This document shows positions 4,363-35,049 of a stretch of 64,000 nt of DNA, one piece after another. A program made the position numbers and the translations under genes. Positions within the stretch are counted from its first letter, which is position 1. Each line of letters begins with the position of its first letter. Location of the stretch: positions 10,673 through 74,672 of the forward strand of contig DATJQV010000075.1 of the NCBI GenBank assembly GCA_035505375.1. The letters run 5' to 3'. The DNA is from a bacterium. Its GTDB lineage: Bacteria; Hydrothermota; Tepidihabitantia; Tepidihabitantales; Tepidihabitantaceae. Under the pieces are notes generated by a model that did not search any database, was not told the DNA's origin, and saw only the letters and a list, made by a program, of their open reading frames with translations.

Positions 4363-4420
4363 CCGGCCCCGCTTCCCGTTGCCGGCTTGACGCCATGGCC
4401 GCGCCAGCTAGACTCTAACT

Positions 4421-10314: not shown

Positions 10315-10320
10315 CGGTTC

Positions 10321-14525: not shown

Positions 14526-14543
14526 CATCCCGATTCGTGCCCA

Positions 14544-19261: not shown

Positions 19262-19549
19262 AGTGTCCTCCTAGAAAAAGAAACAGAACGCTACTCGCAT
19301 ACACAACCCTGTCATCTGCGGCTCAGTTCTGGGGGCTGGCTTGCCTGCATGGTAGAGCTCACACAGGGCAGGGCCAAGCTGGCTCGGATAGGACTGACTC
19401 CAGAGTGACGGCACGACCTTCCAATCACTTCCGCTCCAGGAACTGCCGGATGGCGGGGATGCAGGCGGCGAGACCGGCTCCGGTTCGCGGGCGGGCTTCC
19501 GTCACTTCCCTTCTGATGCGCTTCTGGAATCGCCCCGTAGCACACACCG

Positions 19550-22500
19550 TCATGGGTTATGCCTGAAGCCCAGTGCTTCAGCAGCCTCCCAAAGAACGCG
19601 AGCAGTTTCCTCAAGCTCTGCGGGGAGCTTCCTGGCGCTCTCGTGGTATTGTCCAATCGTGAAGGCTAAGTTCCGAGCTTTCGGAGTCAGGTGATCATCC
19701 ATCTTCGCCCATCTGGCCAGCGCGTACCAGGCGGCAGCCTCCGCGGAGGCCTTTGGGCTTGTGGTCTGACGGATAGCTGGGGCGGGTCTGAGCCGAGACC
19801 TGACTTGTGGCCTAACTTCCTTGGCGACAGCCTCTACGGCCGTCGGGGCGACTTCCCACTCGAATGGCGTCTGCGTGGGTGCCTGGCGCGCGGGACTCAC
19901 TTGAGCGTGGTAGCTTGGGGCCGGTAACTCCGCCAGGACACGGACAACCTGCTCAATGCACTGGTCGCGGCTGTGCCAGTACTTACGTGAGGGCACACGG
20001 AAGACATGCCACCCCGCTCTTTCTAGGATGTGCTGGCGCTCGATGTCCTCGATCCTCAACTCGCCGGCGTCATCGTAGTGAAACCGCCCGTCACACTCAA
20101 CTGCCAAGCGCCGTCCGCTTGCGTCGGTCACAACAAGGTCGATGCGGAATCCGCAGGCGGGATATTGGGGTATTACGTTCAGGCCCCGCCGCTCAAGGAG
20201 CATGCACACATCCTCTTCGAACGGGCTGTCATGCACGCTCAGCGCTGGGATGGGACCGCAGTTCGGGTTCTTACAGTGAATCAAGAAGTCTCGAACTAAA
20301 CCCGCAGGGAACTCGCTGACGTCCATGCTTGTGTAGCAGATCACTTTCTTGCGCGCTCGGGTGAAGGCGACATTCATGCGGCTTTCACCTCGATTCGCCT
20401 GCTGAATGGCTAGTACGACGCCTGGGTGCGAGTTTGGGGCGTACCTGAAAGAGTAGAAGATCACATCCCGTTCATCACCCTGGAAGCCATCGACCGTGGA
20501 CGCGATTAGTGGTTCGCGCGCAGACCTCGTCGCTAACGTGCTGTCATCAATTAGGATATCTTCAAGCTTGGCCCTTATGTAGGCTGCCTGCTCCCTGTAG
20601 AGCGATAGCACGCCGAATGACATGTTTTCGTACGCCGGGTCACGCATCCGGCGCGTCAAATCAGCGATGAGCAGATCAGCTTCCTTCTGGTTCACTGAGT
20701 TCTCATCTTCGAGTGCCCCTTGCACGTGAATGACCTCAAAGGCGCCACCCACCGGTGCGGCGGCACCATGGGTCATTATCCTGAGCTGATTGGAATAGAA
20801 CCTCGAGTTGGAGAAGGCGATGATCTCCGGCAGGCTGCGGTAATGCTCATTGAGAAACACCTTCCTTTCGCGCCACAGGGCGACTAGATCCAGCAAGGAT
20901 GATTCCAACACGTCAAAGGCAAACGCCTTTGGGAGGGCGTCTATGCCATATCGACGCTTGATAAGGGCGTTGGTAGGCACTGGAAAGAACATGAGGTCTG
21001 AGTTCGGAAGCTGCTTCTCGTCACCGACCACGATTGCCGACTTCGCCCTGTACAAGAGCGGCAGTGCTCCCATAAGGTGGCATTGCGACGCCTCGTCGAC
21101 TATCACCACGTCGAATAGTCCCGGTTCGAGAGGGAACACCCTGCAGACGTCATTCACATTCATGACCCAGCAAGGCAGCACGTCAAGGATTCTGCTGAAA
21201 TTGACGTCGTTCTTGAGCCGTTCGAAGCTCTCGAAGTTCCTCCTGCTCCTTCTCAGTGCCTTGCGCAACGTGGCAACATCACGCCCCACATCGCGAGACG
21301 CGTACTGCCGGCCGAGGTTTGTGTCGACGCGCCGACGCAGGAGTTTTGCCGTGTTTTCGGCGAGATCGTGCTCGTTCTTCTTAATGGCGACCGCAACGCT
21401 CGCAGTGTCGTGCGGATGAGAGCACAAGTCCGCTTGGACGGCCTCGTTGAAGCGACGCGCTCTCACGAGCCGAAGCAACTGGTCGCGGCCCAACGGTTGC
21501 TGCAGCACTCGTGGCGTCGCGGTCTCATCGCGGAGCCACGCGGCCAAGTGCGGGCCCAACGCAGGTTCCGCCTGCCTGAGCGCAGCAAACTGCTCGATTG
21601 AGAGGGCGAGCCTCCGCATAACCTCAGCAGTTTCCCGCAGTTTCTTGTATTTGTTACCCTCCGTCAACTGAAGCACCTCGTATGCCGAGGCGATCGGCTT
21701 CATGTTCGCGCATGCCGCTACGAGTTCGTCACCCTTCACCAACGCAGACAGAGCCTTCGTGACGATATCAATATGCTCCTTGGCGGATGCGACGGAGAGT
21801 AGGTCGTCAATGGACAGGCAATCAAAAGGTTGTTCTCGCAAGGCCAGCTCGACAGCGGATTGGAGATCAGAAAGGGCTAAGACGTCGAGCAGCCTCCGTG
21901 ACTGCTTCAATAGGGTTGTTGTGTCTCCAGCGCGCGCGGCCAACACGAAACTGTTCTGGCAGAGTTCCACGGGGAGACGACGTGCTAGGTCGGTTATCTC
22001 GGCGCGTGCTCGCATCCTCTGCCAACGTCTCCGCATGTGGTACCAACGGCAATCACGGTTGGCCCTTACTTTCTCTGCAATACTGATCATCCGCGTGAGG
22101 TCATCGCGAGCTGTGCTGCGCATGTCATCATCATATACGCTGAGCGCGGCGGCCTGCTCCCGCAATAGCCCGACATCATCGTATCTTTGTCGCATCAGTT
22201 CCAGGCACTGAGCGAATTGTATAGCGTGCGGCTCGACCTTTCCTATTGCCTGAAGTATGCGACTGGCAAGACTAGGCGAGAACGCCTGGTCAGCAAGCAG
22301 GTCTGTCTTCGTCTGCACTACGCCATCGGCAGCCAGCAGTTCTCCCAGGGTGGCGAGTATGCCGGCAAGCGAAAGCATGCCATTCGCAACCGTCGTGGGT
22401 TCCTCGTTGAGGAGAGGCATCGACTGAGCCCAGGAGGATAACACTCTCCACCAACTGCTGGGCTCGAATCCCGCACTTCCCGACGCGAACCTCCGCAAGT

Positions 22501-23938
22501 AATCCTGCATACGTTGCACGAGCTGCTCGTCCTCCATGTCAGGTAATCTGATGTCGGACGGCATGACGTCATCAGATCGAGTCGCGTGGTATGACCTGAA
22601 CAGCGGTTCGCTTTGGTGCTCCTGCTGTCTGGCGGCAGAGAAACTGTTCGACAACTCAGCAGCATTGTGTCTGAGGCCGACTCGTTCCATCTCAAGGCTC
22701 GACAACGACCTGCTCAGCAATTCCGCTCTGCTGGTTTGCAGGTGAGCGTCAATGGCCTGCAGTTTCTGCTGCAGAAGGCGTTTGGACTCTGCGTCATCCC
22801 TCAGGAGGGTCATTGACAGGTATTCCACGCCGAGCTCGTTCAGTTTGTCGGAGACGACCTCCAGGGCTTTGTTCTTCTGGCTCGTCACAAGCACGGACTT
22901 TCCTTCCGCTACCAGATGGCACACGAGGTTACAGATGGTCTGAGATTTCCCGGTGCCCGGCGGCCCTTGGACTTCCACTAGTCGATGGCTATCTACACAC
23001 GAAAGAACACTGCGTTGCGGCGGATTACTTGCGAAGGGGAAGATGCAGTCCACTGTCTCCTCGCCGCTAGGCGACTCCTCTGCAGCAGCGTCTACCGGCT
23101 GCGAGGCGTCGCCGAACATTGATGCCAACACTGAGCCCTCTACTGACAAGTCTGGATCCGCCAGAGCTGCAAGGTTGCTCTGGAGGTAATACTGCGGATT
23201 CGCGACTAGCAGTAATGCTGCACAGGGCATGACGTCCAGCCGTGGACCAGCTGCTGCCCGCCCCCGGGTTAGTTTTTCTAGTGTCCACTCCCAGTCGAGT
23301 GGAGGTGCGAAGGCGGATGTTGCGTTCGCCACTGTTCTCACGAATTCAGTGAAGTCGGCATCCGCGAGGGGAAGCGATGGCACTCTGAGGTCCCTTACGG
23401 ACAACTCGAAGTAGTGTTGTTGCTGCTCAGTCAGGAGCTTTGGCCAAACCTGGGAGTTGAAAGTCAGACTATCATTGACTAGACGGATCTTCACCGCCGA
23501 AGTCGGTAGGTCGACTGTAACCGCGCAGCGAACGGTAAAGAGTGGCGCGCATATCCGGACGTCTCGCGGGCCGACTCCGACTAGGAAGGGGTAGCCGTAA
23601 ACGATCTCGCGTTCATATGGGTTCAGTACCTGTCTCTGGTGGAGTCGCTTAAGTCGGTCGAATGCGACGGCCGGATCGTTGTTCGCCGGACCTTCGGACG
23701 AGTGTAGCTCAGCAGCCGCTGGGATGTCGAATAGCTCTTCGCGCGCGCTCGGCGGCCTGATGGTAGCCTGTCCTGTACCCTTGAAGAGCGTCTCGGCGTT
23801 TTGCAGAAACGACATGTCAACATAGTCATGCACGCCCGCTTGGAACACATCCGTCAGGTGTTTGTTGGCAGCGTCATAGGTGAGTTTTGTTACGGCTTGG
23901 TAGTACTGGGCGAGTCGGCTTATATCGGAACTAGTCAT
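19550..23938 (-). CDS. giant SF1 (Upf1/DNA2-like) helicase with N-terminal DUF4011-like region and C-terminal DUF559/Vsr-like endonuclease domain; architecture of the single-gene Hhe defence system
   Basis: Walker A VQGPPGTGKSQTICNL and motif II FDVVIVDEASQ. The AAA_12-like motifs NEHYRSLPEIIAFSNSRFYSN and STVDGFQGDERDVIFYS are present. The C-terminal IDLVVTDASGRRLAVECDGRFHYDDAGELRIEDIERQHILERAGWHVFRVPSRKYW is DUF559-like. The protein is 1462 aa long. Confidence 0.85.
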   Translation of the reverse strand: MTSSDISRLAQYYQAVTKLTYDAANKHLTDVFQAGVHDYVDMSFLQNAETLFKGTGQATIRPPSAREELFDIPAAAELHSSEGPANNDPAVAFDRLKRLHQRQVLNPYEREIVYGYPFLVGVGPRDVRICAPLFTVRCAVTVDLPTSAVKIRLVNDSLTFNSQVWPKLLTEQQQHYFELSVRDLRVPSLPLADADFTEFVRTVANATSAFAPPLDWEWTLEKLTRGRAAAGPRLDVMPCAALLLVANPQYYLQSNLAALADPDLSVEGSVLASMFGDASQPVDAAAEESPSGEETVDCIFPFASNPPQRSVLSCVDSHRLVEVQGPPGTGKSQTICNLVCHLVAEGKSVLVTSQKNKALEVVSDKLNELGVEYLSMTLLRDDAESKRLLQQKLQAIDAHLQTSRAELLSRSLSSLEMERVGLRHNAAELSNSFSAARQQEHQSEPLFRSYHATRSDDVMPSDIRLPDMEDEQLVQRMQDYLRRFASGSAGFEPSSWWRVLSSWAQSMPLLNEEPTTVANGMLSLAGILATLGELLAADGVVQTKTDLLADQAFSPSLASRILQAIGKVEPHAIQFAQCLELMRQRYDDVGLLREQAAALSVYDDDMRSTARDDLTRMISIAEKVRANRDCRWYHMRRRWQRMRARAEITDLARRLPVELCQNSFVLAARAGDTTTLLKQSRRLLDVLALSDLQSAVELALREQPFDCLSIDDLLSVASAKEHIDIVTKALSALVKGDELVAACANMKPIASAYEVLQLTEGNKYKKLRETAEVMRRLALSIEQFAALRQAEPALGPHLAAWLRDETATPRVLQQPLGRDQLLRLVRARRFNEAVQADLCSHPHDTASVAVAIKKNEHDLAENTAKLLRRRVDTNLGRQYASRDVGRDVATLRKALRRSRRNFESFERLKNDVNFSRILDVLPCWVMNVNDVCRVFPLEPGLFDVVIVDEASQCHLMGALPLLYRAKSAIVVGDEKQLPNSDLMFFPVPTNALIKRRYGIDALPKAFAFDVLESSLLDLVALWRERKVFLNEHYRSLPEIIAFSNSRFYSNQLRIMTHGAAAPVGGAFEVIHVQGALEDENSVNQKEADLLIADLTRRMRDPAYENMSFGVLSLYREQAAYIRAKLEDILIDDSTLATRSAREPLIASTVDGFQGDERDVIFYSFRYAPNSHPGVVLAIQQANRGESRMNVAFTRARKKVICYTSMDVSEFPAGLVRDFLIHCKNPNCGPIPALSVHDSPFEEDVCMLLERRGLNVIPQYPACGFRIDLVVTDASGRRLAVECDGRFHYDDAGELRIEDIERQHILERAGWHVFRVPSRKYWHSRDQCIEQVVRVLAELPAPSYHAQVSPARQAPTQTPFEWEVAPTAVEAVAKEVRPQVRSRLRPAPAIRQTTSPKASAEAAAWYALARWAKMDDHLTPKARNLAFTIGQYHESARKLPAELEETARVLWEAAEALGFRHNP

Positions 23939-24034
23939 GGAAGCTCAATGGAACACTCCCGGCATTCCGAGCCTCCATCGGGGGTTTGGCGAAGCTAAGT
24001 CTTTGAGGGCAAGGTCTTTGAGGACCTGCAGTTG

Positions 24035-24271
24035 CTAGATGCGCTGCTCGGTCCATTCGCTCTCGCCCGAGAAGACGTACTGGAAGAGCCAGAGGTCGAA
24101 CTGCTCGCGGAGGAAGGCCTTGGCATTCTTGTTGATGAAGTAGTCAACCTCGCTCTGCCGCTCGAACACGCGGAACGCCCGCTCGACCGCTTCTTCCTTC
24201 ACCTCGACGCCGAGCTTGTGCAACTGGCGCATGATGTCGTCCATGGTTCGGCGGATTCGTTCTTCGTTCAT
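24035..24271 (-). CDS. small hypothetical protein (78 aa) downstream of fic
   Basis: ORF with balanced composition: MNEERIRRTMDDIMRQLHKLGVEVKEEAVERAF...LWLFQYVFSGESEWTEQRI. No family assignment could be made. Confidence 0.35.
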   Translation of the reverse strand: MNEERIRRTMDDIMRQLHKLGVEVKEEAVERAFRVFERQSEVDYFINKNAKAFLREQFDLWLFQYVFSGESEWTEQRI

Positions 24272-24385
24272 CGTTCTTCGTTAATCGGCCACACCGCACT
24301 TGCCGGTATCAGGCATGAGAGTCTACGGCGTCAGCGCATATAGGTACTGAAAGCCGGTTCAGTACACAATAATTGCGCATCGTAC

Positions 24386-25432
24386 CTATACCCGCTTCCA
24401 CTTCGCGTCCGGGCCGCGTCCGAGGCATCCGAGTCTTCCCGCCTTGCGTTCGTTGCGCAGGATGCGGCGGATAAGGTCAATGCCGACGTTGGGGCAGCGC
24501 TCAAGGACGTCGCGGGCCGAGAAATCGCCGGATATGTGCTCAAGCATGTCCAGCACGAGGGCGGTCTTGCTGCCGCGTCCGGTCGCGACCAGGCCGACCC
24601 GGCGTTCAAATTCCTGGTACGCCCCGACCAGCATCACGCCGAGGAAGTACTCAAGCCACGGCGTCAGATCGTGTTTGGCCTGATGCCAGCGCTGGGAGGA
24701 ACGGTAGAGCGTGTCGTAGTAGCCGGGTTTCGTGTCTTCGACAACCCGCTCCAGGCTGACGTACCTGCCGACTTCGTAGCCGGCACGGTAGAGAAGTTGC
24801 AGCGTGAGCAGGCGTGCCAGTCTGCCGTTGCCGTCGCTGAATGGGTGAATACACAGGAAGTCGAGGACGTAGGCGGCAATGAGGAACAGCGGTTCAATGT
24901 CGCCTTGGTCCCAGCGAAGGTCGAACCGCTCGTGCAGCGTCGCCATGGCCGCAGGCGTCTGGCGTACGCCGACCGGGACGAACTGCACGACCCGGATTCC
25001 CTCAGGCATGACCGCAACGATCTTGTTGTTCTTTCGCTTCCAGTGCCCGCCTTGTCCCGGGACCAGCCGAAACACCTGCCCGTGCAGGGCCAGCACCGAT
25101 GGCGCGTTGAACGCCATCCGGACGTGGTTGGCGTGAATCGAGTTGAGCGCGTCGCGGTAGCCCGCAATCTCCTGCTCCGACCGGTCCCGCGGCCTGGTTC
25201 TCCTCGCAACCAGCTCGCGAATCCTCTCCGGGGACGCGGTAACGCCCTCTATCCGGTTCGACGATTCAGTGCTCTGGATGATGGCCACTTGTCTCAGCGT
25301 TTCGAGAACCTGCGGTGCTTGCTCTTTGAACAGGTCCTGCCTGCCCTTGTATTCGCCCAGCAGTCTGACGGTCTTGAGCAGGTTCTGACTGACCGGCACG
25401 CGCTCCAGGTAGCCGGTCTTGAACGAGTTCAC
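24386..25432 (-). CDS. fic: Fic family protein (Fic_N + Fic + C-terminal wHTH)
   Basis: Fic motif HPFSDGNGRLARLL. The N-terminal Fic_N-type motif STESSNRIEGVTASPERI (SxxxEG inhibitory-helix pattern) is present. The length is 348 aa. Confidence 0.85.
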   Translation of the reverse strand: MNSFKTGYLERVPVSQNLLKTVRLLGEYKGRQDLFKEQAPQVLETLRQVAIIQSTESSNRIEGVTASPERIRELVARRTRPRDRSEQEIAGYRDALNSIHANHVRMAFNAPSVLALHGQVFRLVPGQGGHWKRKNNKIVAVMPEGIRVVQFVPVGVRQTPAAMATLHERFDLRWDQGDIEPLFLIAAYVLDFLCIHPFSDGNGRLARLLTLQLLYRAGYEVGRYVSLERVVEDTKPGYYDTLYRSSQRWHQAKHDLTPWLEYFLGVMLVGAYQEFERRVGLVATGRGSKTALVLDMLEHISGDFSARDVLERCPNVGIDLIRRILRNERKAGRLGCLGRGPDAKWKRV

Positions 25433-25444
25433 TCAGTGCCCCGC

Positions 25445-25560
25445 AGGTAGTCGCACGGCCTTGAGGCAGCATGCAGTAGGCAGTACACAGCACACAGGCA
25501 TCAAGACGACGGTCCTTTCACGCCGGCGATAGACGCTATCAGGCCATGAAGCATCCCAGA
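25445..25560. repeat. CAGCATACAGCA / GCAGTAGGCAGTACACAGCA repeat block (same family as 14395..14525 and 25990..26075)
   Basis: gcagcatgcagtaggcagtacacagcacacagg ... cagcatgcagcagacagcatacagtatacgg. Confidence 0.45.
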
Positions 25561-25604
25561 GCAGCATGCAGCAGACAGCATACAGTATACGGGGAAGAGA
25601 GTCG

Positions 25605-25985
25605 TCACTGTGACGTGATCCTCGTCCCGTTTGCGACTGATCTTGTCAAACCGTGGAGCATTCTGGCGATCTCTTCGGTACTCTCGACCATCTCGCGGTT
25701 GTCAGGCATGTATCCCAAGTCCTTTGAGAGAATCAGGTAGTAGCGCAGCTCTTCGAGCGAGCCTTGCGCGATATTGTAGAAGTTGAGCTTGTCCCGGACC
25801 CCGCGCTTCTTGAAGCCTTCCGCCAGATTGGCCGGCACCGAGACTGCGGCTCGTCTCATCTGCGAAGTCAGTCCGAACCGCTCCTCAGCCGGGAAGCTCC
25901 CTGTGATTCGATAGACCTGCAGCACCATCTGGTGGGCCTTCTGCCACACCGTCAAGTCCCCGAATTGCCTTATCTTCTCAGCCAT
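25605..25985 (-). CDS. four-helix-bundle protein (23S rRNA intervening-sequence protein family, PF05635-like)
   Basis: MAEKIRQFGDLTVWQKAHQMVLQVYRITGSFPAEERFGLTSQMRRAAVSVPANLAEGFKKR...NIAQGSLEELRYYLILSKDLGY matches the family consensus. The ORF track extends it to 26066 through a repeat, so an internal start at 25985 is preferred. Confidence 0.6.
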   Translation of the reverse strand: MAEKIRQFGDLTVWQKAHQMVLQVYRITGSFPAEERFGLTSQMRRAAVSVPANLAEGFKKRGVRDKLNFYNIAQGSLEELRYYLILSKDLGYMPDNREMVESTEEIARMLHGLTRSVANGTRITSQ

Positions 25986-25989
25986 GCTA

Positions 25990-26075
25990 GCCAGTATACA
26001 GTATGTAGCATACAGCATCCAAGAGCCGCTCCCTGCATACTGCATACTGTATGCTGTATGCTGCAAGGAAACGCT
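25990..26075. repeat. ATACAGTATGTAGCATACAGCA ... TGCATACTGCATACTGTATGCTGTATGCTGCA palindromic repeat block
   Basis: Internal inverted symmetry (CAGTATACAGTATG / CATACTGTATGCTG). Related to the blocks at 14395 and 25445. Confidence 0.45.
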
Positions 26076-26200
26076 CCTGGCTCTTGTCTGCTTTGGCTGT
26101 CGCGTTCACAGCCACGGCAAACCTCCAACACGGTGCATCGACATGCGTCAGAATGTTAGTCTCGTGCCGTACATAGTCAAGCCCGCGCGCGACTGGGCGG

Positions 26201-26590
26201 TCAGTCGGAATCGTCCGTGCTCCCGGCCAGGGGCAGGGCACGGATGCGGACTCGGGCCTGCTCGAAAACAACGACGCTGCCCGATTCGAGCGCCTCAGCG
26301 ACGCCAGGCAGGTTCTTCAGCAGCAGCGCGACCTGACGTTCGGGCCGCCGTTCGGTCCGACGCCGGAACAGGATGACCGACGGCTGTTTGAGAGCCCGGT
26401 GCGCGAGAATCTGTCCGAAGTCGGTGTCCGCAGAAATGAGGATTCGCCCTTCGCGGGCGGCGCAGGCAAAGACTGTCTCGTCGTCGGCGTCACGGATTCC
26501 TTTGTCCCGGACGTGCGACGCATCGTGTCCGGCCCGACGCAACGCCGCGGCCACGTCGGGCGAGAGGGCATTGTCGACGAGGAACTTCCA
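26201..26590 (-). CDS. DUF5615 (PIN-like, Mut7-C-like) putative toxin; the reading frame has no in-frame start codon (possible frameshift or pseudogene)
   Basis: The frame translates [61 protein letters not shown], matching the DUF5615 consensus (xLLLDENLSPRL...AGHDA). A TGA lies immediately 5' of the W codon, and the first ATG is only at 26554. Confidence 0.5.
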
Positions 26591-26817
26591 TCAGCGACCA
26601 GCAGCGGCAGCTCGCGCTCGCGCACTGCTTCTGCGGCATAGCGCATGGCCTCGCGGATGTCCTCGGTCTCGAGGTCCGGGTAGGCCTTGAGTATTTCCAC
26701 CTCGGCCATGCCATCCGCGAACATACCCACGATGGTGGCGACCGGAATCCTCAAGCCCCGAATGCAGGGCACGCCGCCCATCTGGAGCGGGTCAATCGTG
26801 ATGCGTGTGAATTTCAT
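26317..26817 (-). CDS. DUF433 antitoxin-like protein (first ~80 aa) whose frame reads through ~85 low-complexity codons over the DUF5615 gene; probable junction frameshift
   Basis: [65 protein letters not shown] matches DUF433. The remainder ([21 protein letters not shown]...) is an out-of-frame translation of the DUF5615 gene. Confidence 0.5.
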
Positions 26818-27036
26818 GTTCTCACCTCTGGCTTTCGTCAGTCATACTATGCCACATGCAACAGCGGATGTCAACCTGCTCACGCTGCGGAGTCGCATTG
26901 ATTGCGGCGGCGCGACGCTGGCGACGGAGGCGTCGGGTTCGGCCGGATCTGGCCTTGCATCAGTAGGGATGTTATGCGCGCGCCGGCTAGAGTCAAGGCC
27001 AGCGCGGGCCGGAGCGATGGAAAGAAGGGGTCTGGC

Positions 27037-27366
27037 GCAGGCCTGGGTGCCGTTGCAGAAGCAGGAACGGCGGCCGTTGCGTCTGCGGGAACGTGGGCCG
27101 GAACGGACGCTGTTTCGGTGTCTGGAACAGATGCTGTTGCGGGCGCAGGCACGAGAGCCGTTGCGGCAGCAGGGCCGGTAGCCGTTGCGATACGAGGACC
27201 GGGTGCGGTTCAGGGCGCAGGTGCAGTGCCGGAACCAAGTGCTGTTGGGGTGAGAGTTCCGGAGGCCGGTGCGATGCCAGACCATGAGGCCGGAGCGGTT
27301 TCCGTTGCAGCGGCCGGAACGGCTGCTGTTTCCGGGGTTGGGCCGGCCGCAGGAACGAGGGCCGGA
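27037..27366. repeat. array of ~27 degenerate 12-nt units (24-nt super-period GCAGGAACGGCG-GCCGTTGCGNNN) with internal inverted symmetry; open in most frames
   Basis: gcaggcctgggt gccgttgcagaa gcaggaacggcg gccgttgcgtct gcgggaacgtgg gccggaacggac ... gccggaacggct gctgtttccggg. Plus-strand translation gives AGTxAV tetrapeptide repeats. Several overlapping ORFs are open on both strands. Confidence 0.6.
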
Positions 27367-27409
27367 TAGGGGGCAGGAACTCCCCCAGCCGTCTAGGGGA
27401 TAGAGAGAA

Positions 27410-27458
27410 CCGGACAAAGCAGAAACCAGAATTCAGAGACCAGAAACCAGAAATGCCC
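27410..27458. repeat. GGACAAAGCAGAAACCAGAATTCAGAGACCAGAAACCAGAA copy of the intergenic element family
   Basis: Direct match to the family core. Confidence 0.55.
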
Positions 27459-27692
27459 GAACGGGAAAGACTTAGGACACGACGGCGGGGACGAAGTCAA
27501 AAGGCAGCAGCCAAGAGCCAAGAGTCAAGACCGGAGATCTGGAACGATGAACGGGCGAACTCCGGGTTCACCGAGAGGACGAAAAGAACTGAGGGCTTAG
27601 TGACTCTCTCCGGCTGGGCATAACTTCTTCACACTCAGTCGGTTAAGCGTTATCGCGTTGCGGATAATCCGCATATAGGGGTCGCCTGGGGG

Positions 27693-27970
27693 CTAGCCTT
27701 TGAGGAAGCGTTCAGAGGAGCCATGAAACAAGCCTTGAAGTGAGCTTTGAGTTGAGCTTTCAGAGGAGCTTTGCCGCGAGCTTTCGACTGAGCTTTGCCG
27801 CGAGCGATGCGAGGAGCGATGCGCCGAGCTTTGAGATGAGCAATGCACGAAGCGATGAAGCGAGCTTTGCAGTGAGCCATTGAAGAAGCTATGAAGTGAG
27901 CTTTCGAGTTTGCTTTCTAAGGTACTTTCCGGCGAACTCTGAAACGAGCTTTCGGACGAGCTTTGTGGCG
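27693..27970. repeat. array of ~23 tandem 12-nt units NGAGCTTTGNNN (8 conserved + 4 variable nt), immediately upstream of der
   Basis: ... caagccttgaag tgagctttgagt tgagctttcaga ggagctttgccg cgagctttcgac tgagctttgccg cgagcgatgcga ggagcgatgcgc cgagctttgaga tgagcaatgcac gaagcgatgaag cgagctttgcag ... cgagctttcgga cgagctttgtgg. The only long ORF through it (27693..28424 on the minus strand) starts inside der on the antisense strand. Confidence 0.65.
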
Positions 27971-28062
27971 AAGAATTAGACAAGAATTGACGCGCCACCT
28001 CACGAGTCCGCGCCGCCCTCGGAATCCTCGAAAGCGCGGTGCTTTCTGCTATAATACCACCC

Positions 28063-29334
28063 ATGGTCGTCATCGTCGGCCGGCCGAATACCGGTAAGTC
28101 AACGCTCTTCAACCGCCTCGTCGGCGGCCGCGTCGCCATCACGTTGCAGCAATCCGGCATTACGCGCGACCGGATCATCCGCGATGCCGAGTGGCTGGGG
28201 CGCCGATTCAAGGTCGTGGACACCGGTGGTCTGGTCCCGAACTCGAAAGAGGAGATGAACCGCGAGGTCGAGCGCCAGGTGCAGATTGCGCTGGACGAAG
28301 CCAAGGTCATCGTGCTCGTGGTTGACGGCTCGGTCGGGCTGCAGCCGCTGGACGCGGAGATCGCCACGCGCCTGCGCCGGGCCGGCCGGGAGTTCATCGT
28401 CGCGGTGAACAAGCTCGACATCAAGCGGAAGTTCGAGGAGGCCGACTATCACAAGCTGGGCGGGGCAGCGCTCATCCCGATTTCGGCCGAAGCCGGGACC
28501 GGCGTAGACGAGCTGCTGGAAGCAGTCCTGTCCCGGTTGCCCGAGGTTGTGCGGGCGAAGCGGGCCGACGTGTTGTCGCTTGCCATCGTCGGCCGCCCGA
28601 ACGTCGGGAAGTCCTCGTTGATGAACTATCTGCTCGGCCACTCCCGCTCGATTGTCACGGCCACGCCCGGCACCACGCGCGACGTCATCGAGGAGTCGTT
28701 CGAGCTGGAGGGACACGCCTATCGTCTGCTCGACACCGCCGGCATCCGCCGCAAGCCGCGCGTGAGCGAGCCGGTCGAGTACTATTCGGTCACGCGCGCG
28801 ATTGAGCAGATTAAGCACTGCGACGTCGCCCTGGTCATGTTCGACGCCCACGACGGGCCGAACAACCAGGATAAGCGTATCGTCAACCTGGCCGTGGAAC
28901 GGAGCCGGGGGCTGGTCGTCATCGCCAACAAGATGGACACTGTGCCGGACAAGCTCAAAGACAAGGTGCGTGACTGGGTAAAGAAGGAGCTGAGTTTCGC
29001 GGACTACGCGCCGGTCCTGTTCACGTCGGTGCTGCAGGGCCTGGGTGCAACCGAGGCAGTGCACGAGGCCCGCCGGGTCTGGGAGAACGGCGGACAGCAG
29101 ATACCCGGGCCGAAGCTCCGCGAGAAGATTCTGCCGTTGCTCGAGAAGAACCAGCCGCGGTTCGACTGTCGCGTAGTCGCGATCAGCCAGGTGAGCACGC
29201 GGCCGCCGACTTTCCGGCTACGGGTGACCAGGCCCAACGTTCTCGCGCCCGCGTACGAGCGATTCGTTATCGCTGAAATCCGGAAGCGGTTCAAGTTCAT
29301 CGGGTACCCGATACGGATCAAGACCACACGCTGA
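28063..29334 (+). CDS. der: ribosome-assembly GTPase Der (EngA), two tandem GTPase domains plus KH-like C-terminal domain
   Basis: G1 motifs GRPNTGKST and GRPNVGKSS. DTGG/DTAG and NKxD (NKLD, NKMD) motifs are present twice. The supplied ORF starts at GTG 28039, but ATG 28063 (MVVIVGRPNTGKS) lies 8 nt after a TATAAT hexamer. Confidence 0.9.
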   Translation: MVVIVGRPNTGKSTLFNRLVGGRVAITLQQSGITRDRIIRDAEWLGRRFKVVDTGGLVPNSKEEMNREVERQVQIALDEAKVIVLVVDGSVGLQPLDAEIATRLRRAGREFIVAVNKLDIKRKFEEADYHKLGGAALIPISAEAGTGVDELLEAVLSRLPEVVRAKRADVLSLAIVGRPNVGKSSLMNYLLGHSRSIVTATPGTTRDVIEESFELEGHAYRLLDTAGIRRKPRVSEPVEYYSVTRAIEQIKHCDVALVMFDAHDGPNNQDKRIVNLAVERSRGLVVIANKMDTVPDKLKDKVRDWVKKELSFADYAPVLFTSVLQGLGATEAVHEARRVWENGGQQIPGPKLREKILPLLEKNQPRFDCRVVAISQVSTRPPTFRLRVTRPNVLAPAYERFVIAEIRKRFKFIGYPIRIKTTR

Positions 29335-29478
29335 GGCGGACGCGGAGAAACCAGAAATCAGATATCAGAGAACTGAAAGCAGAATTGACCGAGGCTCGGA
29401 CAGAACGCAGTGAGGGCGGACGCGGAGAAACCAGAAATCAGATATCAGAGAACTGAAAGCAGATTCGGGTGTGCCCGG
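29335..29478. repeat. two direct copies (~78 bp period) of GGCGGACGCGGAGAAACCAGAAATCAGATATCAGAGAACTGAAAGCAGA
   Basis: Near-identical copies start at 29335 and 29413. The core belongs to the CAGAAACCAGAA family. Confidence 0.65.
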
Positions 29479-29517
29479 ACTGAGAAGTAGAATGCTGAAC
29501 CGCGCACGGCGGGGCGA

Positions 29518-29937
29518 GTGGATACGCTAGACAGACTGGATGACAGGCTGGACATGGACAGCAGGCTGCTGCACTTCGCGGCAGATGTGATCGCGCTGGC
29601 TCCTCGTCTTCAGCGGTCGCCGACTGGAAGGTACCTTGTGGGACAGATGGTACGCGCGGGCACTTCAGCCGGGGCCAACTTCCAGGAGGCGCGCGGGGCC
29701 GAGAGTCGGGCTGACTTCGTGCACAAGATGCAAGTCGTACTCAAGGAGCTGCGCGAGACCGAATACTGGCTCAGGCTCCTCAGAGAGGCCAAGCTGATGC
29801 CATCGGATCTTCTAGCGGGCCCGCTCGCGGAAGTGGACGAACTGATTCGGATCGTCGTCAAGTCGGTGGTAACGGCGAAGACAAGACATTACAATGCGGG
29901 CGGCGGAGAAACCAGAAATCAGATATCAGAGAACTGA
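29518..29937 (+). CDS. four-helix-bundle protein (23S rRNA intervening-sequence protein family), second copy
   Basis: GQMVRAGTSAGANFQEARGAESRADFVHKMQVVLKELRETEYWLRLL matches the family pattern. The C-terminal 12 aa (GGETRNQISEN) are the translation of the adjacent repeat element. Confidence 0.6.
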   Translation: MDTLDRLDDRLDMDSRLLHFAADVIALAPRLQRSPTGRYLVGQMVRAGTSAGANFQEARGAESRADFVHKMQVVLKELRETEYWLRLLREAKLMPSDLLAGPLAEVDELIRIVVKSVVTAKTRHYNAGGGETRNQISEN

Positions 29938-30046
29938 AACCAGAAATGTCCGAAGCCGGCTTTCTGATTTCTGGTATCTGATTTCTGACTTCACCTTTGT
30001 CCGTGTTTGCATTTCTGGTATCTGGTTTCTGAATTCTGGTTTGTCC
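29899..30046. repeat. inverted-repeat element GGCGGAGAAACCAGAAATCAGATATCAGAGAACTGAAACCAGAA ... TTCTGGTATCTGGTTTCTGAATTCTGGTTTGTCC
   Basis: Overlaps the 3' end of the four-helix-bundle gene and the annotated 5' end of the LCP ORF. Confidence 0.6.
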
Positions 30047-30057
30047 GTTCCGCTGCT

Positions 30058-31296
30058 ATGTCCCGCCGTCTGAATTCTGCCTGGTTCATCGTCGCCGGTG
30101 TCGTCGTAGTTGTCTTCCTCATCGGCTTCTACCTGCTCGGGCCGCGGCCGCGCCGGGCCGCGCCGACAACACTCCAGCCGACCCCTGCCGGCACGCTGAA
30201 CATCCTGATCATCGGCAAGGACGCCCGCGCGATCGGCCCGGTCGTGAACGAAGGCCGGCAGCGCAATAAGCGTGAGGAGCAGTCCCACTCCGACATTATC
30301 ATCATCTGCCACATCAACTTCGGCATTCCTGCGGTCAACCTGGTGGCGATTCCTCGCGACCTGCTGGTCGAGGTGCCGGGCATCACCACTTCGGCCCAAT
30401 CGAACACCGACTTCACGCACATGGAGAAGATCACCCACGTCTACGCCATCGGCGGGGACAAGCTGCTGCGCAAGACCATCACGAACCTCCTGGGCATCCC
30501 CATCCACCGCTCGATCGCGTTCGATTTCGACACCTTCCGGATGGCGTTCGATATCCTCCGGCCGTTCATCGGCGTGCTGAGCATCGGCGGGGTGACCCTG
30601 ACCGAACGCGACCAGGCGCTCATGTTCGCGCGCAAGCGCTACGGACTTTTGTACGATGACGCGGACCGCTGCCGCCACGCGCTCCAGCTTGTAAGCGGCG
30701 TCATGGCACGGACCTGGCGGCTGGGCGGAACCCGGCTTGGCGACATGCTCATCAATCGGCTGCTCGCGATCGTCGGCGAGGATACGGACCTGACCGCAGA
30801 CGAGATCCACGAGGTTATCGATGGCCTGCGGCGGACCGGGTTCAGACCGGCGAGAACGGAGACCGCCGTGCTGGTCAGCGAAGGCGCGGACGTGACGCTG
30901 ACTCGCTACAACCAGACGCTATCCTGCTATCTGCCCGTGTATCGCGAGATCGAGAAGCAGACCCGTCGCTACCTGCTCGATCAGAAGGATGTGGACGCGC
31001 TCGACTTCATGACTCAGGAGAACTTTCGCGTGCCCGCCTACTTCGACTCGAGCTACGTTCTGCCGGTGAGCGCGACGGATACGCTGCGGCCGCTGCCGTT
31101 CGATACGGCCGGCATGGACACGCAGCTCAAGTCGACGCGGCTGAAGGAACTGAGCCAGGAGAACAAAACGAAAGCGGCCGGTGATACGGCGGCCGCCGAC
31201 TCTTTGCACAGTCATCGCCCCCACAAGCCGAAGCCAAAGACACCAACGCCGGCCGACACGCAAAAGACAAAGACCCCCGCCCCAAAGAAAACCTAG
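30058..31296 (+). CDS. LytR-CpsA-Psr (LCP) family cell-envelope phosphotransferase with K/P/T-rich C-terminal tail
   Basis: TM anchor FIVAGVVVVVFLIGFYLL. The LCP core motif is SDIIIICHINFGIPAVNLVAIPRDLLVEVPG. ATG 30058 is preferred over the supplied 30007 start, which lies in repeat DNA. Confidence 0.75.
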   Translation: MSRRLNSAWFIVAGVVVVVFLIGFYLLGPRPRRAAPTTLQPTPAGTLNILIIGKDARAIGPVVNEGRQRNKREEQSHSDIIIICHINFGIPAVNLVAIPRDLLVEVPGITTSAQSNTDFTHMEKITHVYAIGGDKLLRKTITNLLGIPIHRSIAFDFDTFRMAFDILRPFIGVLSIGGVTLTERDQALMFARKRYGLLYDDADRCRHALQLVSGVMARTWRLGGTRLGDMLINRLLAIVGEDTDLTADEIHEVIDGLRRTGFRPARTETAVLVSEGADVTLTRYNQTLSCYLPVYREIEKQTRRYLLDQKDVDALDFMTQENFRVPAYFDSSYVLPVSATDTLRPLPFDTAGMDTQLKSTRLKELSQENKTKAAGDTAAADSLHSHRPHKPKPKTPTPADTQKTKTPAPKKT

Positions 31297-31313
31297 TTCA
31301 CGCGACCCGAGCA

Positions 31314-31411
31314 GGACAATTCAGAAGTCAGATATCAGAGACCAGAAACCAGAGAGCCGGCTCCGGGCATTTCTGATTTCACTTTTCTGGTTTCTGACTT
31401 CTGGTTTGTCC
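31314..31411. repeat. GGACAATTCAGAAGTCAGATATCAGAGACCAGAAACCAGA ... TTTCTGGTTTCTGACTTCTGGTTTGTCC inverted-repeat element between the LCP gene and alaS
   Basis: Family core with inverted arms. Confidence 0.6.
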
Positions 31412-31422
31412 GGACCCGCAGG

Positions 31423-34146
31423 CTAGGCCTGCGCAGATGCGAGCGCTTTGACCGCGCTCCGGAACGCTTCCTGCCCCGCGCCGAGCTTGTCGAGCTGGCC
31501 ACCGCCTTCGGCCAGGTCCGGCTTGCCGCCACCGCCGCCGCCCATTGCCGGGCCGACCGTCTTGGCCAACTTGCCCGCGGGAAGTGATGCCTGCAGGTCC
31601 GGGCTGACGAATACGACGTAGCGGATGCGCGGTCCCTCACCACCGGTGAGCAGTCCCGCGTACTTCTCTTTCAGCAGTTCGCGCACGCGGTCGGATACGA
31701 GCCTGAGCTCGCCGGTCTCGAACCTGGCGAAGTGGCTCACGACGGCCTTGAAGCCGCCGACGTCCTCGGGCTTGGCCGCCAGCTCGTCGCCGGCGACGCG
31801 CGCCAGTTGTGCTGACAGGCCGGCCAGCCTCTCGCCCTGTCGCTTCAGTTCCTCGCCCAGCCCTTCGACCTTCTTGACCAGCGTCTCCTCGGTCCCGCCC
31901 AGATGCTCAGTGAGCTGGGTCACGATGGCGCGCTCGGACGCCGCGTTCTCAAACGCCGCCCTGCCGACCAGCGCCTCGATGCGCCGGATGCCGGCGGCCA
32001 CGCCGGTTTCCGAGATGATGCGGAAAAGCCCGATCTGGCCCGTGCTCTTCAGGTGCGTACCGCCGCAGAGTTCCATCGAGAAGTCACCGACCTTCACGAC
32101 CGTCACCTTCTCGCCATACTGGTCACCGAAGAACGCCAGCGCGCCCATCGCCCGCGCCTCGTCCAGCGGCGTGTTGCGCAGGGCCTGGACATGCCGGTCG
32201 GCCACGACCTGCTCGTACACCGCCCGCTCCACGGCCAAGACTTGCGCCCGCGCCATCGGCTCGAACGCCGCGAAGTCGAAGCGCAGCCGTCCGGGCTCGA
32301 CCAGCGAACCTTCCTGTTTCACATAATCGCCAAGCGTCTTCCGCAGTGCTGCATGCAACAGGTGGGTGGCGGTGTGCGCCCGCTCGATTTCGCGCCTTCG
32401 CTCCGTGTCCACCGCCGCGAAGACCTTGCCGAGGGACATGACCGAACCGTCCGACGGTTCGGATCGTGTCCCGAGGTCCCCCAAGCTCCCCCGCACCAGC
32501 TTCGCCTTGCAGGCAGGCACGCCCTGCTTGTAGTAGGTATTCAGCACTTCGAGCTCGAATCCCTCGCCGATAATCTTCCCGGTGTCGCCGACCTGCCCGC
32601 CCATCTCGGCGTAGAACGGGCTCTTCTTGAGAACGACTTCATACAAGCGCGGGACATGACCGAAATCCTCCTGGGATTTCGGATCGTGTCCCAAGCCGTC
32701 CAACGGTGCGAAGCTCACTATCTCGGTGTCGACCTCGTCGCTGTCGTAGCCGACGAACTCCCAGTCGGCGGCACCTTCGTGCGCCGGACCGGTCGTGCTG
32801 ATGAATGTCTCTTTGCGGCTGCGCTCGCGCTGTTCCTGCATCGCCCGGTCGAATCCGGCCGTGTCGAGCTTCACTCCGGCATCTTCGGCCAGTTCCTTCA
32901 CGAGCTCGATGTGGAACCCGAAGGTGTCGTGCAGCTTGAACAGGTCGTCGCCGGGAATGAGTCCGTCGCGCCTGTGCGCGTCCAGCACGTTCTGCCAGCG
33001 CTCCAGCCCGGCATCGAGGGTACGCAGGAACCGCTCCTCTTCCGACTTGATGATAAGCGCCGCCTGCTCGCGCTTGGCCACGACTTCCGGGTACCACTGC
33101 CGCATCAACTCGACGACCTCGCCCGAGACCTTGTAGAGGAACGGCTCAGCTACGCCCTGCCGGTGGGCGAAGAGCAGCGCCCGACGCAGGATGCTGCGCA
33201 GAACGTAGCCCCGTGCCTCATTTGAGGGAATCACGCCATCGGCGATGGCGAAGGTCAGGGCGCGCGCGTGGTCCGCCGCGACGTATAGCATCGAAGGGAC
33301 ATGACCGAAATCCGCCGGGGATTTCGGATCGTGTCCCGAGACGCCTCGCCCTTCGCCCTTCGCATCCATATTGAGCATCTTTGCCGTCGCCTTCACGATA
33401 GGGGCGAAGAGGTCAGTCTCGAATATCGTCTTCTTCTTCTGGGAGACCATGGCCAACCGTTCCATGCCCATGCCGGTATCGATGCCGCGGTTCTTCAGCG
33501 GCTCGCGCTTACCGTCGGGCAACTGGTTGTACTGAGGGAAGACGATATTGTAGACTTCGCTGAAACGGTCGCAGTCGCAGCCCGGCGCGCAGTCCGCCTT
33601 GCCGCAGCCGAACTCGGCCCCGAGGTCCACGTAGATTTCCGAGCAGGGACCGCAGGCTCCGCCGCCCCCGACCGGGCCCCAGAAGTTGTCCTTGGCGCCG
33701 AGGCGGACGACCCTGTTGGCCGGCAGGCCGACCTTGGTGCGCCAGACGTTGTAGGCCTCATCGTCCTCGGTGAAGACCGAAGCGTACAAGCGCTCCGCGT
33801 CGAGCTTCACGACCTGGGTCAGGTATTCCCACGCCCAGGGAATCGCCTCGTGCTTGAAGTAGTCGCCGAACGAGAAGTTACCAAGCATCTCGAAGAATGT
33901 GCCGTGGCGCGGAGTCTTGCCGACCTGGTCGAGGTCGGACGCGCGCAGGCACTTCTGGATGGAAGTCGCCCGGCGATAGGGCAGTTCGACCGTTCCCGCC
34001 CAGTACGGCTTGAACTGGACCATGCCCGCGCTGGTAAAAAGCATGGTCGGGTCGTCCCTCGGAATCAGGGACGAACTCGGTACGACCCGGTGGTCCCGCT
34101 GGCCGTAAAACTCAAGGAACGTCCGACGCAGCTCGCGGTGATTCAT
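31423..34146 (-). CDS. alaS: alanine--tRNA ligase (AlaRS) carrying three in-frame 40-42-bp palindromic insertions
   Basis: N-terminal RDDPTMLFTSAGMVQFKPYW, with FGDYFKHEAIPWAWE and HTATHLLHAAL (editing domain). C-terminal DHHA1-like region is present. The length is 907 aa. Inserted peptides are GHDPKSPADFGHVP, GHDPKSQEDFGHVP and GTRSEPSDGSVMSL. Confidence 0.9.
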   Translation of the reverse strand: MNHRELRRTFLEFYGQRDHRVVPSSSLIPRDDPTMLFTSAGMVQFKPYWAGTVELPYRRATSIQKCLRASDLDQVGKTPRHGTFFEMLGNFSFGDYFKHEAIPWAWEYLTQVVKLDAERLYASVFTEDDEAYNVWRTKVGLPANRVVRLGAKDNFWGPVGGGGACGPCSEIYVDLGAEFGCGKADCAPGCDCDRFSEVYNIVFPQYNQLPDGKREPLKNRGIDTGMGMERLAMVSQKKKTIFETDLFAPIVKATAKMLNMDAKGEGRGVSGHDPKSPADFGHVPSMLYVAADHARALTFAIADGVIPSNEARGYVLRSILRRALLFAHRQGVAEPFLYKVSGEVVELMRQWYPEVVAKREQAALIIKSEEERFLRTLDAGLERWQNVLDAHRRDGLIPGDDLFKLHDTFGFHIELVKELAEDAGVKLDTAGFDRAMQEQRERSRKETFISTTGPAHEGAADWEFVGYDSDEVDTEIVSFAPLDGLGHDPKSQEDFGHVPRLYEVVLKKSPFYAEMGGQVGDTGKIIGEGFELEVLNTYYKQGVPACKAKLVRGSLGDLGTRSEPSDGSVMSLGKVFAAVDTERRREIERAHTATHLLHAALRKTLGDYVKQEGSLVEPGRLRFDFAAFEPMARAQVLAVERAVYEQVVADRHVQALRNTPLDEARAMGALAFFGDQYGEKVTVVKVGDFSMELCGGTHLKSTGQIGLFRIISETGVAAGIRRIEALVGRAAFENAASERAIVTQLTEHLGGTEETLVKKVEGLGEELKRQGERLAGLSAQLARVAGDELAAKPEDVGGFKAVVSHFARFETGELRLVSDRVRELLKEKYAGLLTGGEGPRIRYVVFVSPDLQASLPAGKLAKTVGPAMGGGGGGKPDLAEGGGQLDKLGAGQEAFRSAVKALASAQA
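32433..32472. repeat. palindromic element GGGACATGACCGAACCGTC-CGACGGTTCGGATCGTGTCCC inside alaS (copy 1)
   Basis: Perfect or near-perfect hairpin with GGGACA/TGTCCC termini. Translated in-frame on the minus strand. Confidence 0.6.
32651..32692. repeat. palindromic element GGGACATGACCGAAATCC-TCCT-GGGATTTCGGATCGTGTCCC inside alaS (copy 2)
   Basis: 42 bp (14 codons), in-frame. Confidence 0.6.
33295..33336. repeat. palindromic element GGGACATGACCGAAATCC-GCCG-GGGATTTCGGATCGTGTCCC inside alaS (copy 3)
   Basis: 42 bp, in-frame. It adds about 14 aa relative to the alignment expectation before the conserved VAADHxRA segment. Confidence 0.6.
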
Positions 34147-34206
34147 TGCGGTTATTTTATAGAGAAACTCAGGCTACGCAACAGGGCACACCGCGTCATG
34201 CGGAAT

Positions 34207-34290
34207 GGGACAAACCAGAAGTCAGAAACCAGAAGAGTGAAACCAGAAATGTCCTGAACCGAATTCCTTGTTTCTGGTCTCTGCGCTCTG
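34207..34290. repeat. GGGACAAACCAGAAGTCAGAAACCAGAAGAGTGAAACCAGAAATGTCC ... TTGTTTCTGGTCTCTG element between alaS and recX
   Basis: Family core. Confidence 0.55.
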
Positions 34291-34308
34291 CGCTAGCCGA
34301 GCCGATTA

Positions 34309-34932: not shown

Positions 34933-34944
34933 GGAGTCAGACCA

Positions 34945-35041
34945 GACAAATCAGAAATCAGAAACCAGAAAAGTGAAATCGGGATCAGCAGGAGCCGGCT
35001 TTCTGGTTTCTGGTATCTGGTTTCTGGTTTCACTATTGTCC
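34945..35041. repeat. GACAAATCAGAAATCAGAAACCAGAAAAGTGAAATC ... TTCTGGTTTCTGGTATCTGGTTTCTGGTTTCACTATTGTCC element between recX and recA
   Basis: Family core with inverted arms. Confidence 0.6.
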
Positions 35042-35049
35042 GAGACCGC

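Follow-up and report, generated by a model that had tools for sequence, protein, structure and literature searches.

Contiguous direct repeats such as those of parC (11 bp, bound by ParR), tubC (12 bp, bound by TubR) and the omega heptads (7 bp) are coated cooperatively, with one protein unit per repeat. These plasmid centromere and operator arrays consist of 4-10 repeats and lie beside their own par genes on plasmids or phages. Here we describe a tandem array found upstream of der in a 64-kb stretch of bacterial DNA (from contig DATJQV010000075.1; hereafter the window, in which all positions are given unless another contig is named). With its 25 units of 12 bp, the array resembles centromere, operator and iteron arrays in consisting of contiguous direct repeats in the 7-22-bp range. 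However, it has about 24 repeats, is chromosomal, occurs in many copies and has no cognate gene nearby. Comparison of the copies places it in a conserved family of non-coding elements that are dispersed in candidate division WOR-3.

Among regulatory RNAs, those of the CsrB/RsmZ type carry GGA motifs in hairpin loops at irregular spacing. The WOR-3 array is likewise non-coding, a few hundred nucleotides long and filled with copies of a short motif, and is putatively multivalent. Unlike those RNAs, its core (RAGCTTTS) has no GGA and keeps a strict 12-nt phase without hairpins, and its transcription is a prediction. A sponge RNA would be expected to be transcribed independently, from a promoter of its own to a terminator; the flank of the array keeps weak blocks that resemble -35/-10 elements, and no conserved terminator was found. 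REP and BOX modules are palindromic units of 35-50 nt present in small numbers. The WOR-3 element shares with REP/BIME and BOX a modular build and a multi-copy, intergenic, non-coding nature, but it is made of 24 phased 12-mers.

Heptanucleotide arrays in intergenic DNA include the cyanobacterial STRR sequences and the TAACTGA repeats of Beggiatoaceae, Cyanobacteria and Bacteroidetes; they contain 2-43 near-identical 7-nt units in variable copy number, and a post-transcriptional binding role has been proposed for them (PMC4679880). The WOR-3 array is similarly short in period, strand-asymmetric, purely intergenic and lineage-typical, and 7-nt arrays also fill the window. It differs in having a period of 12, distinct units in conserved order, a fixed number of about 24 units and a conserved flank. 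TIGR arrays have 36-nt units with two alternating 8-12-nt repeats and two 9-nt spacers that differ by locus, and adjoin a Tas gene encoding a Nop domain, while CRISPR arrays separate repeats of about 25-36 nt by unique spacers of comparable length (PMC12045711) and usually have cas genes close by. Short conserved and variable segments alternate here as well, but the variable part is 4 nt long and conserved between copies, and the lists of neighbouring genes contain no cas or tas gene. Finally, natural rut sites have no conserved sequence and a loose definition, and they span about 80 nt (PMC6144790). The minus strand of the WOR-3 array has the C>G skew and YC spacing (~12 nt) of such sites, but it repeats a conserved 8-nt motif that includes G over 300 nt. 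No described family (CRISPR, TIGR, iterons, STRR, REP/BOX, CsrB) has this build; broadly, the element belongs with the dispersed intergenic tandem-repeat elements. Short intergenic tandem arrays of bacteria, such as the cyanobacterial and Beggiatoa heptamers, have gone without explanation for decades and are usually dismissed as slippage. The comparative evidence below, from dozens of copies, points to purifying selection on the motif and on its exact 12-nt phase, and makes of an odd repeat a testable hypothesis, that of a periodic binding platform. The defined motif, phase mutants and sister families are reagents with which a binding factor could be found in an uncultured phylum.

A 12-nt array upstream of der

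Written in rows of 12, the array runs as 25 head-to-tail units from 27694 to 27993 on the plus strand with zero register slip. Base identity at lags of 12, 24, 36 and 48 nt is 0.59, 0.60, 0.63 and 0.58, respectively, and about 0.1-0.3 at the remaining lags (lag 7, at 0.30, is slightly above the other lags that are not multiples of 12). Tandem Repeats Finder reports periods of 12, 24 and 36. A two-unit pattern, allowing up to two mismatches, is matched 14 times in the window, 12 of them inside the array; the expectation from shuffling is 0.19, and none of 100 shuffles reached 14. The strict 12-nt periodicity noted in the first-pass annotation is thus confirmed by autocorrelation, with the last two of the 25 units degenerate. 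That annotation had also set the array apart from CRISPR and from ordinary simple sequence repeats, a distinction with which the unit size, the distinctness of the units (24 of 25 are different) and the stable unit number agree.

The array sits in a 1.25-kb gap that has a minus-strand DUF433/PIN-like toxin-antitoxin pair on one side and the plus-strand gene der on the other, and no gene is called from 26817 to 28063 on the public contig bearing the same sequence. The setting is chromosomal: the window carries der, alaS, recA and dnaA. The host is a member of candidate division WOR-3, its Der protein being 82-89% identical to Der of metagenome-assembled genomes of that division. The ENA contig L001 is 100% identical to window 18063-39334 (~21 kb); the coordinates of L001 on the public contig of 184,714 nt, 17091-38362, are not linearly mappable onto the 64-kb window, which may stem from a different assembly of these data. 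An assembly artefact, which had been raised at the outset, is excluded by this identical contig together with homologous arrays in many independent assemblies.

In the module consensus, the octamer R-A-G-C-T-T-T-S precedes three positions rich in purines and a last one that is not A. When 190 units from nine copies are pooled, position 1 is R (G 69%, A 23%), and positions 2, 3, 4, 5 and 7 are A, G, C, T and T in 90%, 97%, 99%, 78% and 97% of units, respectively. Position 6 is not G and position 8 is not A. Positions 9-11 are purine-rich, T making up 8%, 1% and 5%, and position 12 is almost never A. The first description had eight nearly invariant positions; in the window copy there are four (A2, G3, C4, T7), with R1, T5, W6 and S8 partly constrained. 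Nor are the other four nucleotides freely variable, as had been thought, being largely conserved between copies unit by unit besides their bias in composition. Two types of unit, type I (GAGCTTTG/C) and type II (RAGCNATG), occur in fixed order along the array, and in mid-array they make up a 36-nt super-period. The unit has no dyad symmetry, and its strand asymmetry extends even to the linker positions. A methylation motif overlapping GAGCT had been proposed for checking. An AGCT palindrome or methylation site was rejected, as T is found at position 5 in only 14 of the 25 window units and this position is among the least conserved of the core, even though T stands there in 78% of the pooled family units.

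A dispersed family

At least 11 full-length copies of the array can be aligned, with pairwise identities of 55-84%. At least 38 further copies exist as spurious "hypothetical protein" calls, found by translating the open frame and searching protein databases with a profile; four of these yielded new loci. Both copy numbers (11 full-length, 38 called as open reading frames) are lower bounds. The copies have about 22-25 units each and are colinear unit by unit, the "variable" four bases included. The rare internal gaps in the alignment of the 11 copies each measure exactly 12 nt; of the 38 others, 35 differ in length from the profile by 0 or +/-4 codons. Scanning metagenome contigs with a pattern brought up numerous ordinary satellites as well as at least eight high-GC contigs with arrays of this kind. 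Low-GC hits with AGAGCTTTG units (L098, L117, L130) were set aside as unrelated satellites, which have indels and lack the flank. These and similar contigs have 29-43% GC and are probably eukaryotic; their satellites are long runs of almost identical 12-nt units with AGAGCTTTG, found in both orientations. The search of related genomes that the first-pass annotation had recommended revealed a dispersed family whose unit number stays at about 22-25, without free expansion. Neither this family with its conserved flank nor the sister array families figured in that annotation.

The complete element is about 400 nt long and consists of a conserved flank of ~110 nt and ~24 modules of exactly 12 nt. 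Only one side of the array has a conserved flank; on the other side the copies are no longer homologous beyond the last unit. A second flank type accompanies the more distant copies (L165, L211, L003, L004). Within the flank (Table 1), the TTAGTGA and CATAAC blocks keep a constant spacing of ~16 bp and, going by their sequences, could be a weak -35/-10 pair. Sigma-54, extracytoplasmic-function (ECF) and sigma-28 spacings, compared by eye, do not fit the flank, and no convincing conserved RNA structure was found in it among the copies.

The genomic contexts vary. The copies in the window, L177 and L209 are 76-81% identical and lie in unrelated gene neighbourhoods within one community sample, ENA ERZ27256505 / JGI 3300032897 (Ga0335071); the common origin follows from L209 (ENA) and L210 (Joint Genome Institute, JGI), which are 100% identical over 20.5 kb and so connect the assemblies of the two archives. 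The gene der lies downstream of none of the eight metagenome copies. Conversely, among relatives the region upstream of der holds a diverged copy of the family in L004 and L005, a 12-nt array with a different motif in L003, heptamers in L009, and no array in L002, L006, L007, L008 and L010, where another gene abuts der. No informative pair of filled and empty sites was found upstream of der among these relatives. An element specific to der is unlikely because most copies are elsewhere. The gene next to the array is co-directional with the C-rich orientation in seven of nine contexts (the orientation statistics rest on ~10 contexts). An early pattern of 5/5 had pointed to a fixed orientation relative to neighbour genes, which was rejected when more loci brought it to 7/9.

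Selection on the motif and on its phase

Divergence at each position was measured as the mean pairwise value among the five closest copies. It is 0.05-0.08 at G3, C4 and T7, 0.16 at A2, about 0.26 at positions 1, 5, 6 and 8, and 0.33-0.49 at positions 9-12, so that core divergence is six- to nine-fold lower than linker divergence. Linker positions match between copies far better than they do between different units within one array, which makes the unit orthology sound. The lower core divergence therefore reflects purifying selection and no alignment effect. Gene conversion between units is not its main cause, because the unit-specific linkers are kept. The phase itself must be selected, since no out-of-phase indel is found at such divergence. 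The general picture from these comparisons is one of purifying selection on a short motif in a fixed 12-nt phase.

Sister arrays in the same genomes

The array belongs to one of several families. Besides the present one, called B, the same genomes carry four or more sister families (A, C, D, E), whose arrays are ~300 nt long, 12-nt-phased and made of ~21-30 units; arrays of A and C are inside the window (Table 1). The family A array is 43% G, and the gaps between its homologues in L177 and L208 are of 12 nt only. The family C array is followed by CTGTCTA heptamers and the hairpin CCCCCGGGCGGGGG; its copy in L209 (5692-6035) is ~90% identical over ~240 nt (window ~39000-39240), without indels and in another neighbourhood. 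In L211, families D and E (4161-4483 and 7191-7569) are clustered with a family B copy; the cluster also holds a PIN toxin-antitoxin pair and adjoins radical-SAM/PqqD genes. In every family one strand is C>G and one end bears a GC-rich G4-5/C4-5 hairpin, which in A, C and D stands at the 3' end of the G-rich strand. In families A and D the G-rich strand alone folds better than shuffles (z about -3, and -3.2 for A; other strand about 0 to -0.9), whereas in family C both strands do.

Arrays A and B of the window are separated by a purine-rich linker with two heptamer runs, AAACCAG x5 (27416-27453) and AGCCAAG x3 (27509-27530). The order of A, heptamer-containing linker and B is common to the window, L177 and L208, and suggests that the two arrays may form one larger unit.

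Possible roles of the array

A motif kept in exact 12-nt phase some 24 times per array, and in many copies, is most simply explained by a factor that recognises it and assembles in register. We favour, tentatively, a phase-locked multivalent platform read as untranslated plus-strand RNA. Transcription of the plus (G/A-rich) strand would begin in the conserved flank. A sequence-specific nucleic-acid-binding factor would recognise the motif, one protomer per 12 nt, and would assemble cooperatively along the array, such that an indel other than a whole module would break the assembly and be purged by selection. By analogy with CsrB or RsmZ, the RNA would act as a protein sponge or scaffold and not as a der-specific regulator. 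The first-pass suggestion of a binding-site array for an oligomeric factor thus stands as the best reading, with binding itself as its conjectural part. A single-stranded substrate is favoured because the strand asymmetry reaches the linkers and the unit lacks dyad symmetry. RNA is favoured further because the sole conserved flank holds weak-promoter-like blocks at constant spacing, and because the purine skew of the plus strand of the array matches the sense of the neighbouring coding strands. It was counted as support for this orientation that, of the two strands of sister arrays A and D, the G-rich one alone folds better than shuffles.

Several points weigh on the other side. Both the transcription and the strand of the array are deduced from sequence, and the putative -35/-10 blocks are weak. 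A consensus sigma-70 scan reports only the der and DUF433 promoters and none in the flank, no conserved terminator was found 3' of the array on the plus strand, and the neighbour gene lists show no candidate binding protein encoded beside the copies. At least five families that have differing motifs but the same period and length would need several paralogous binders or a motif-independent cause. If families C, D and E are a guide, the flank and hairpin might be the 3' side, and the functional strand would then be the minus (C-rich) one. A platform of double-stranded DNA accounts for the phase constraint equally well.

A stably structured RNA, also proposed at first, finds no support. The fold of the window copy gives z = -0.55 on the plus strand and +1.5 to +1.8 on the minus strand, whose RNA is less structured than 99 of 100 shuffles; among the copies z ranges from -2.6 to +1.8 with inconsistent sign. 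A stable or conserved structure was rejected, as the fold energies of the window copy and its close relatives are within the shuffle range, and the folds contain no periodic hairpins in the array. At gathering thresholds Rfam 15 matches only tRNAs across the window, and a permissive Rfam search of 26800-28100 gave only a chance microRNA match (E = 1.3). A type III antitoxin RNA was ruled out by unit size and neighbours. A resemblance to boxA (NusB/NusE) was dropped, the shared CUUUGA being only a 6-mer.

It is possible, though we advance it with still more reserve, that array B and the A, C, D and E arrays constitute a new class of bacterial non-coding element. Each would be a "molecular ruler" of ~300 nt, on whose ~25 phase-locked modules of 12 nt a periodic nucleoprotein filament is nucleated, be it as RNA or as DNA, with its own binder for each motif family and many copies per genome.

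In the duplex alternative, which we regard as possible but rather doubtful, ~24 contiguous 12-bp sites would be coated by a cooperative DNA-binding protein in the manner of ParR, TubR or omega arrays, and could organise the chromosome, insulate divergent promoters or titrate a regulator. The contiguous direct repeats in strict phase, the whole-unit indels and the short selected core in each unit are all consistent with it, and contiguous 7-, 11- and 12-bp repeats are the binding sites of omega, ParR and TubR. Copies are always intergenic, often between divergent genes or just upstream of promoters, examples being der (window, L004, L005) and metG (L116), and no terminator or stable RNA fold is evident. 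However, the copies have no DNA-binding gene, of the par, rep or any other kind, as a consistent neighbour; the lists of genes beside them include no par or rep gene at all. Searches of plasmid and phage collections gave no match to the array and nothing similar. Matches in viral collections proved to be short near-identical coding repeats, and a plasmid, phage or viral origin was rejected. The asymmetry of the linkers, where T is nearly absent from positions 9-11, meets no obvious need of a duplex site, and the five motif families would require five proteins.

The minus strand suggests a different function, that of a Rho-loading (rut) module. Its C-rich, G-poor RNA would offer UC every 12 nt to the six primary sites of the Rho hexamer and would halt stray transcription before the next gene, often a toxin-antitoxin operon, the flank hairpins serving as a pause/release zone. 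This would be the first sequence-defined modular Rho-loading element, but we consider it improbable. The minus strand is 31% C and 20% G, the entire 26.9-28.0-kb gap is one continuous C>G region on that strand, and UC occupies a fixed position in about two thirds of the units. The published rut rule of YC dimers with 9-13-nt linkers in C>G, weakly structured RNA fits (PMC6144790), and the minus-strand RNA of the window copy has the low structure noted above. A Rho module would also be independent of motif, all five families having a C>G strand and a 12-nt period, and would agree with the co-directional next gene in 7/9 contexts. On the other hand, the bases kept best, G3, C4 and T7 (which the minus strand reads as C, G and A), are not those that Rho requires, and each unit conserves one G. 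The low-structure signal is inconsistent among the copies, 300 nt is four times the Rho footprint, and in about half of the contexts no gene on that side is transcribed into the array. Nor would a Rho module explain the 7-nt arrays found in these gaps.

It is also unlikely that the element is a selfish, non-autonomous dispersed repeat without host function (like a REP or a miniature inverted-repeat transposable element). A transposase acting in trans, such as an IS200-like Y1 enzyme, would move it, and it would need its array and hairpin only for mobilisation. Several copies in unrelated neighbourhoods within one sample, a single conserved flank and GC-rich hairpins would suit such an element. 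The gaps are also rich in toxin-antitoxin genes, four-helix-bundle genes and other repeats, and a transposase of this type adjoins the arrays in L003. Dead copies would decay, however, whereas core motif and phase are kept in all copies, the diverged ones included. Terminal inverted repeats or target duplications were not seen in the copies, the search for a filled/empty site pair upstream of der gave none, and the 76-81% identity within a sample speaks against a recent burst.

A minus-strand gene for a ~100-aa serine-rich protein of (E/Q/H)-S-S-x tetrapeptides is very improbable. Such a frame is suggested by the unit length of four codons, by its being open through the array in nearly all copies and by the 38 predictions of gene callers. 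Five of the six frames contain stops, and the sole open one begins inside der, as first noted, so that the product would run antisense into der. That frame is open because the motif cannot form stops in it. Codon-usage log-odds are -0.22 to -0.80 in the six frames (-0.42 in this one), all in the off-frame range, compared with +0.37 +/- 0.16 (minimum -0.014, n = 288) for in-frame windows of the window's real genes. Ratios resembling dN/dS (nonsynonymous to synonymous divergence) are 0.55-1.16 in every frame, and third positions are not the most variable. The 38 predicted proteins have differing starts inside or outside the array and unrelated ends, which argues against a homologue translated in one consistent frame, a possibility mentioned in the first-pass annotation. 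The protein-like plus frame, A-(L/F/M/I)-x-x, was rejected for its 6-10 conserved TGA/TAA stops per copy and lack of a start. Codon usage, substitution pattern and stops thus agree with the original view that no frame holds a credible gene, and by these measures the array is shown to be non-coding.

A neutral decaying minisatellite or a hypermutable contingency locus, the latter among the first suggestions, is largely refuted and hardly credible: the tandem build, in a genome where short tandem arrays abound, would suit it, but the six- to nine-fold difference between core and linker divergence, the absence of out-of-phase indels in 11 aligned copies (and almost in 38 others), units so distinct that slippage is disfavoured, a unit number stable at ~22-25 across identities of 55-84%, and a position outside the der promoter core all speak against it.

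Other features of the window

Table 1. Features of the element, of its sister arrays and of the adjoining der promoter. Positions are those of the window unless another contig is named.
Feature	Position	Strand	Basis or remark
Family A array, GCCGTTGCnnnn alternating with GCAGGAACnnnn	27014-27407; also L177, L208	+	12/24-nt phase
Family A 3' hairpin, GGGGGCAGGAACTCCCCC	27369-27386	+	
Purine-rich linker between arrays A and B	27416-27530	+	79-86% identical to L177, no indels
Conserved flank	27582-27693	+	common to nine type-1 copies
Flank block AAAAGAACTGAGG	27582-27594	+	copy alignment
Flank block TTAGTGA	27597-27603	+	copy alignment
Flank block GCATAAC	27618-27624	+	copy alignment
Flank block GGTTAAGC	27641-27648	+	copy alignment
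Small flank hairpin GCGGATAATCCGC	27660-27672	+	copy alignment
Invariant flank block AGGGGTCGCC, next to first unit	27677-27686	+	copy alignment
24 phase-locked 12-nt modules	27694-27981	+	register, autocorrelation, position profiles, colinearity with 10 other copies
Local hairpin GTGGCG...CGCCAC across last units	27965-27998	+	window copy only, not conserved
Unit 24, degenerate (GAAGAATTAGAC)	27970-27981	+	register, copy alignment
Unit 25, degenerate terminal module (AAGAATTGACGC)	27982-27993	+	homology between copies stops here
der promoter (TCGAAA, 16-nt spacer, TG-extended TATAAT)	28028-28055	+	kept in all nine WOR-3 relatives
Family C array, CAACCGGAGAGn	38956-39251		between convergent genes
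Family D array, TGAnCCGCaACT	L211		
Family E array, CAAgAGAgACTC	L211		array upstream of der in L003 (3689-3928) is E-like

The der promoter is a neighbour outside the element, the array ending 35 bp upstream of its -35 hexamer. A GGAATCC block upstream of the promoter is also conserved in all nine WOR-3 relatives (window 28028-28065). The der ATG begins 8 nt past the -10 hexamer, and der is therefore probably translated from a leaderless or nearly leaderless mRNA.

Seven-nucleotide tandem arrays occupy many intergenic gaps of the window, for example 10314-10441, 11805-11952, 13547-14557, 29344-30067, 31292-31430, 34190-34301 and 34921-35070. Their motif families are AGAAAYC/TTTCTGR, CTGTCTA, CAGCATA, CTTCGTC and AGCCAAG, and they are often inverted pairs that could form long hairpins; they are reminiscent of the cyanobacterial STRR and Beggiatoa TAACTGA repeats. 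Two genes for 23S_rRNA_IVP/bAvd-like four-helix bundles, at 25605-26018 (-) and 29554-29937 (+), are each bracketed by their own heptamers (CAGCATA/CTGCATA, and AGAAATC/AGAAACC/TTTCTGA, respectively). In relatives such as L002, L003, L005 and L009, the spacing from der to the next gene is too small for an IVP gene, and the gene with its heptamer borders therefore looks like an inserted cassette. An IS200-like Y1 transposase gene, possibly REP-associated, lies beside heptamer and 12-nt arrays upstream of der in L003 (1909-2802) and is a candidate mobiliser of these repeats.

Upstream of the arrays, the region 18000-26800 has the appearance of a defence or mobile island. It encodes a SIR2-like protein, an AAA_11/AAA_12 helicase of 1462 aa that has an MTES_1575 domain, a Fic protein, and DUF433 together with a DUF5615/PIN-like protein, a gene content that is missing upstream of der in relatives. 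At 49833-51218 lies dnaA (DnaA_N, Bac_DnaA and Bac_DnaA_C domains), flanked by non-coding gaps of 270 and 474 nt, and the window may include the chromosomal origin.

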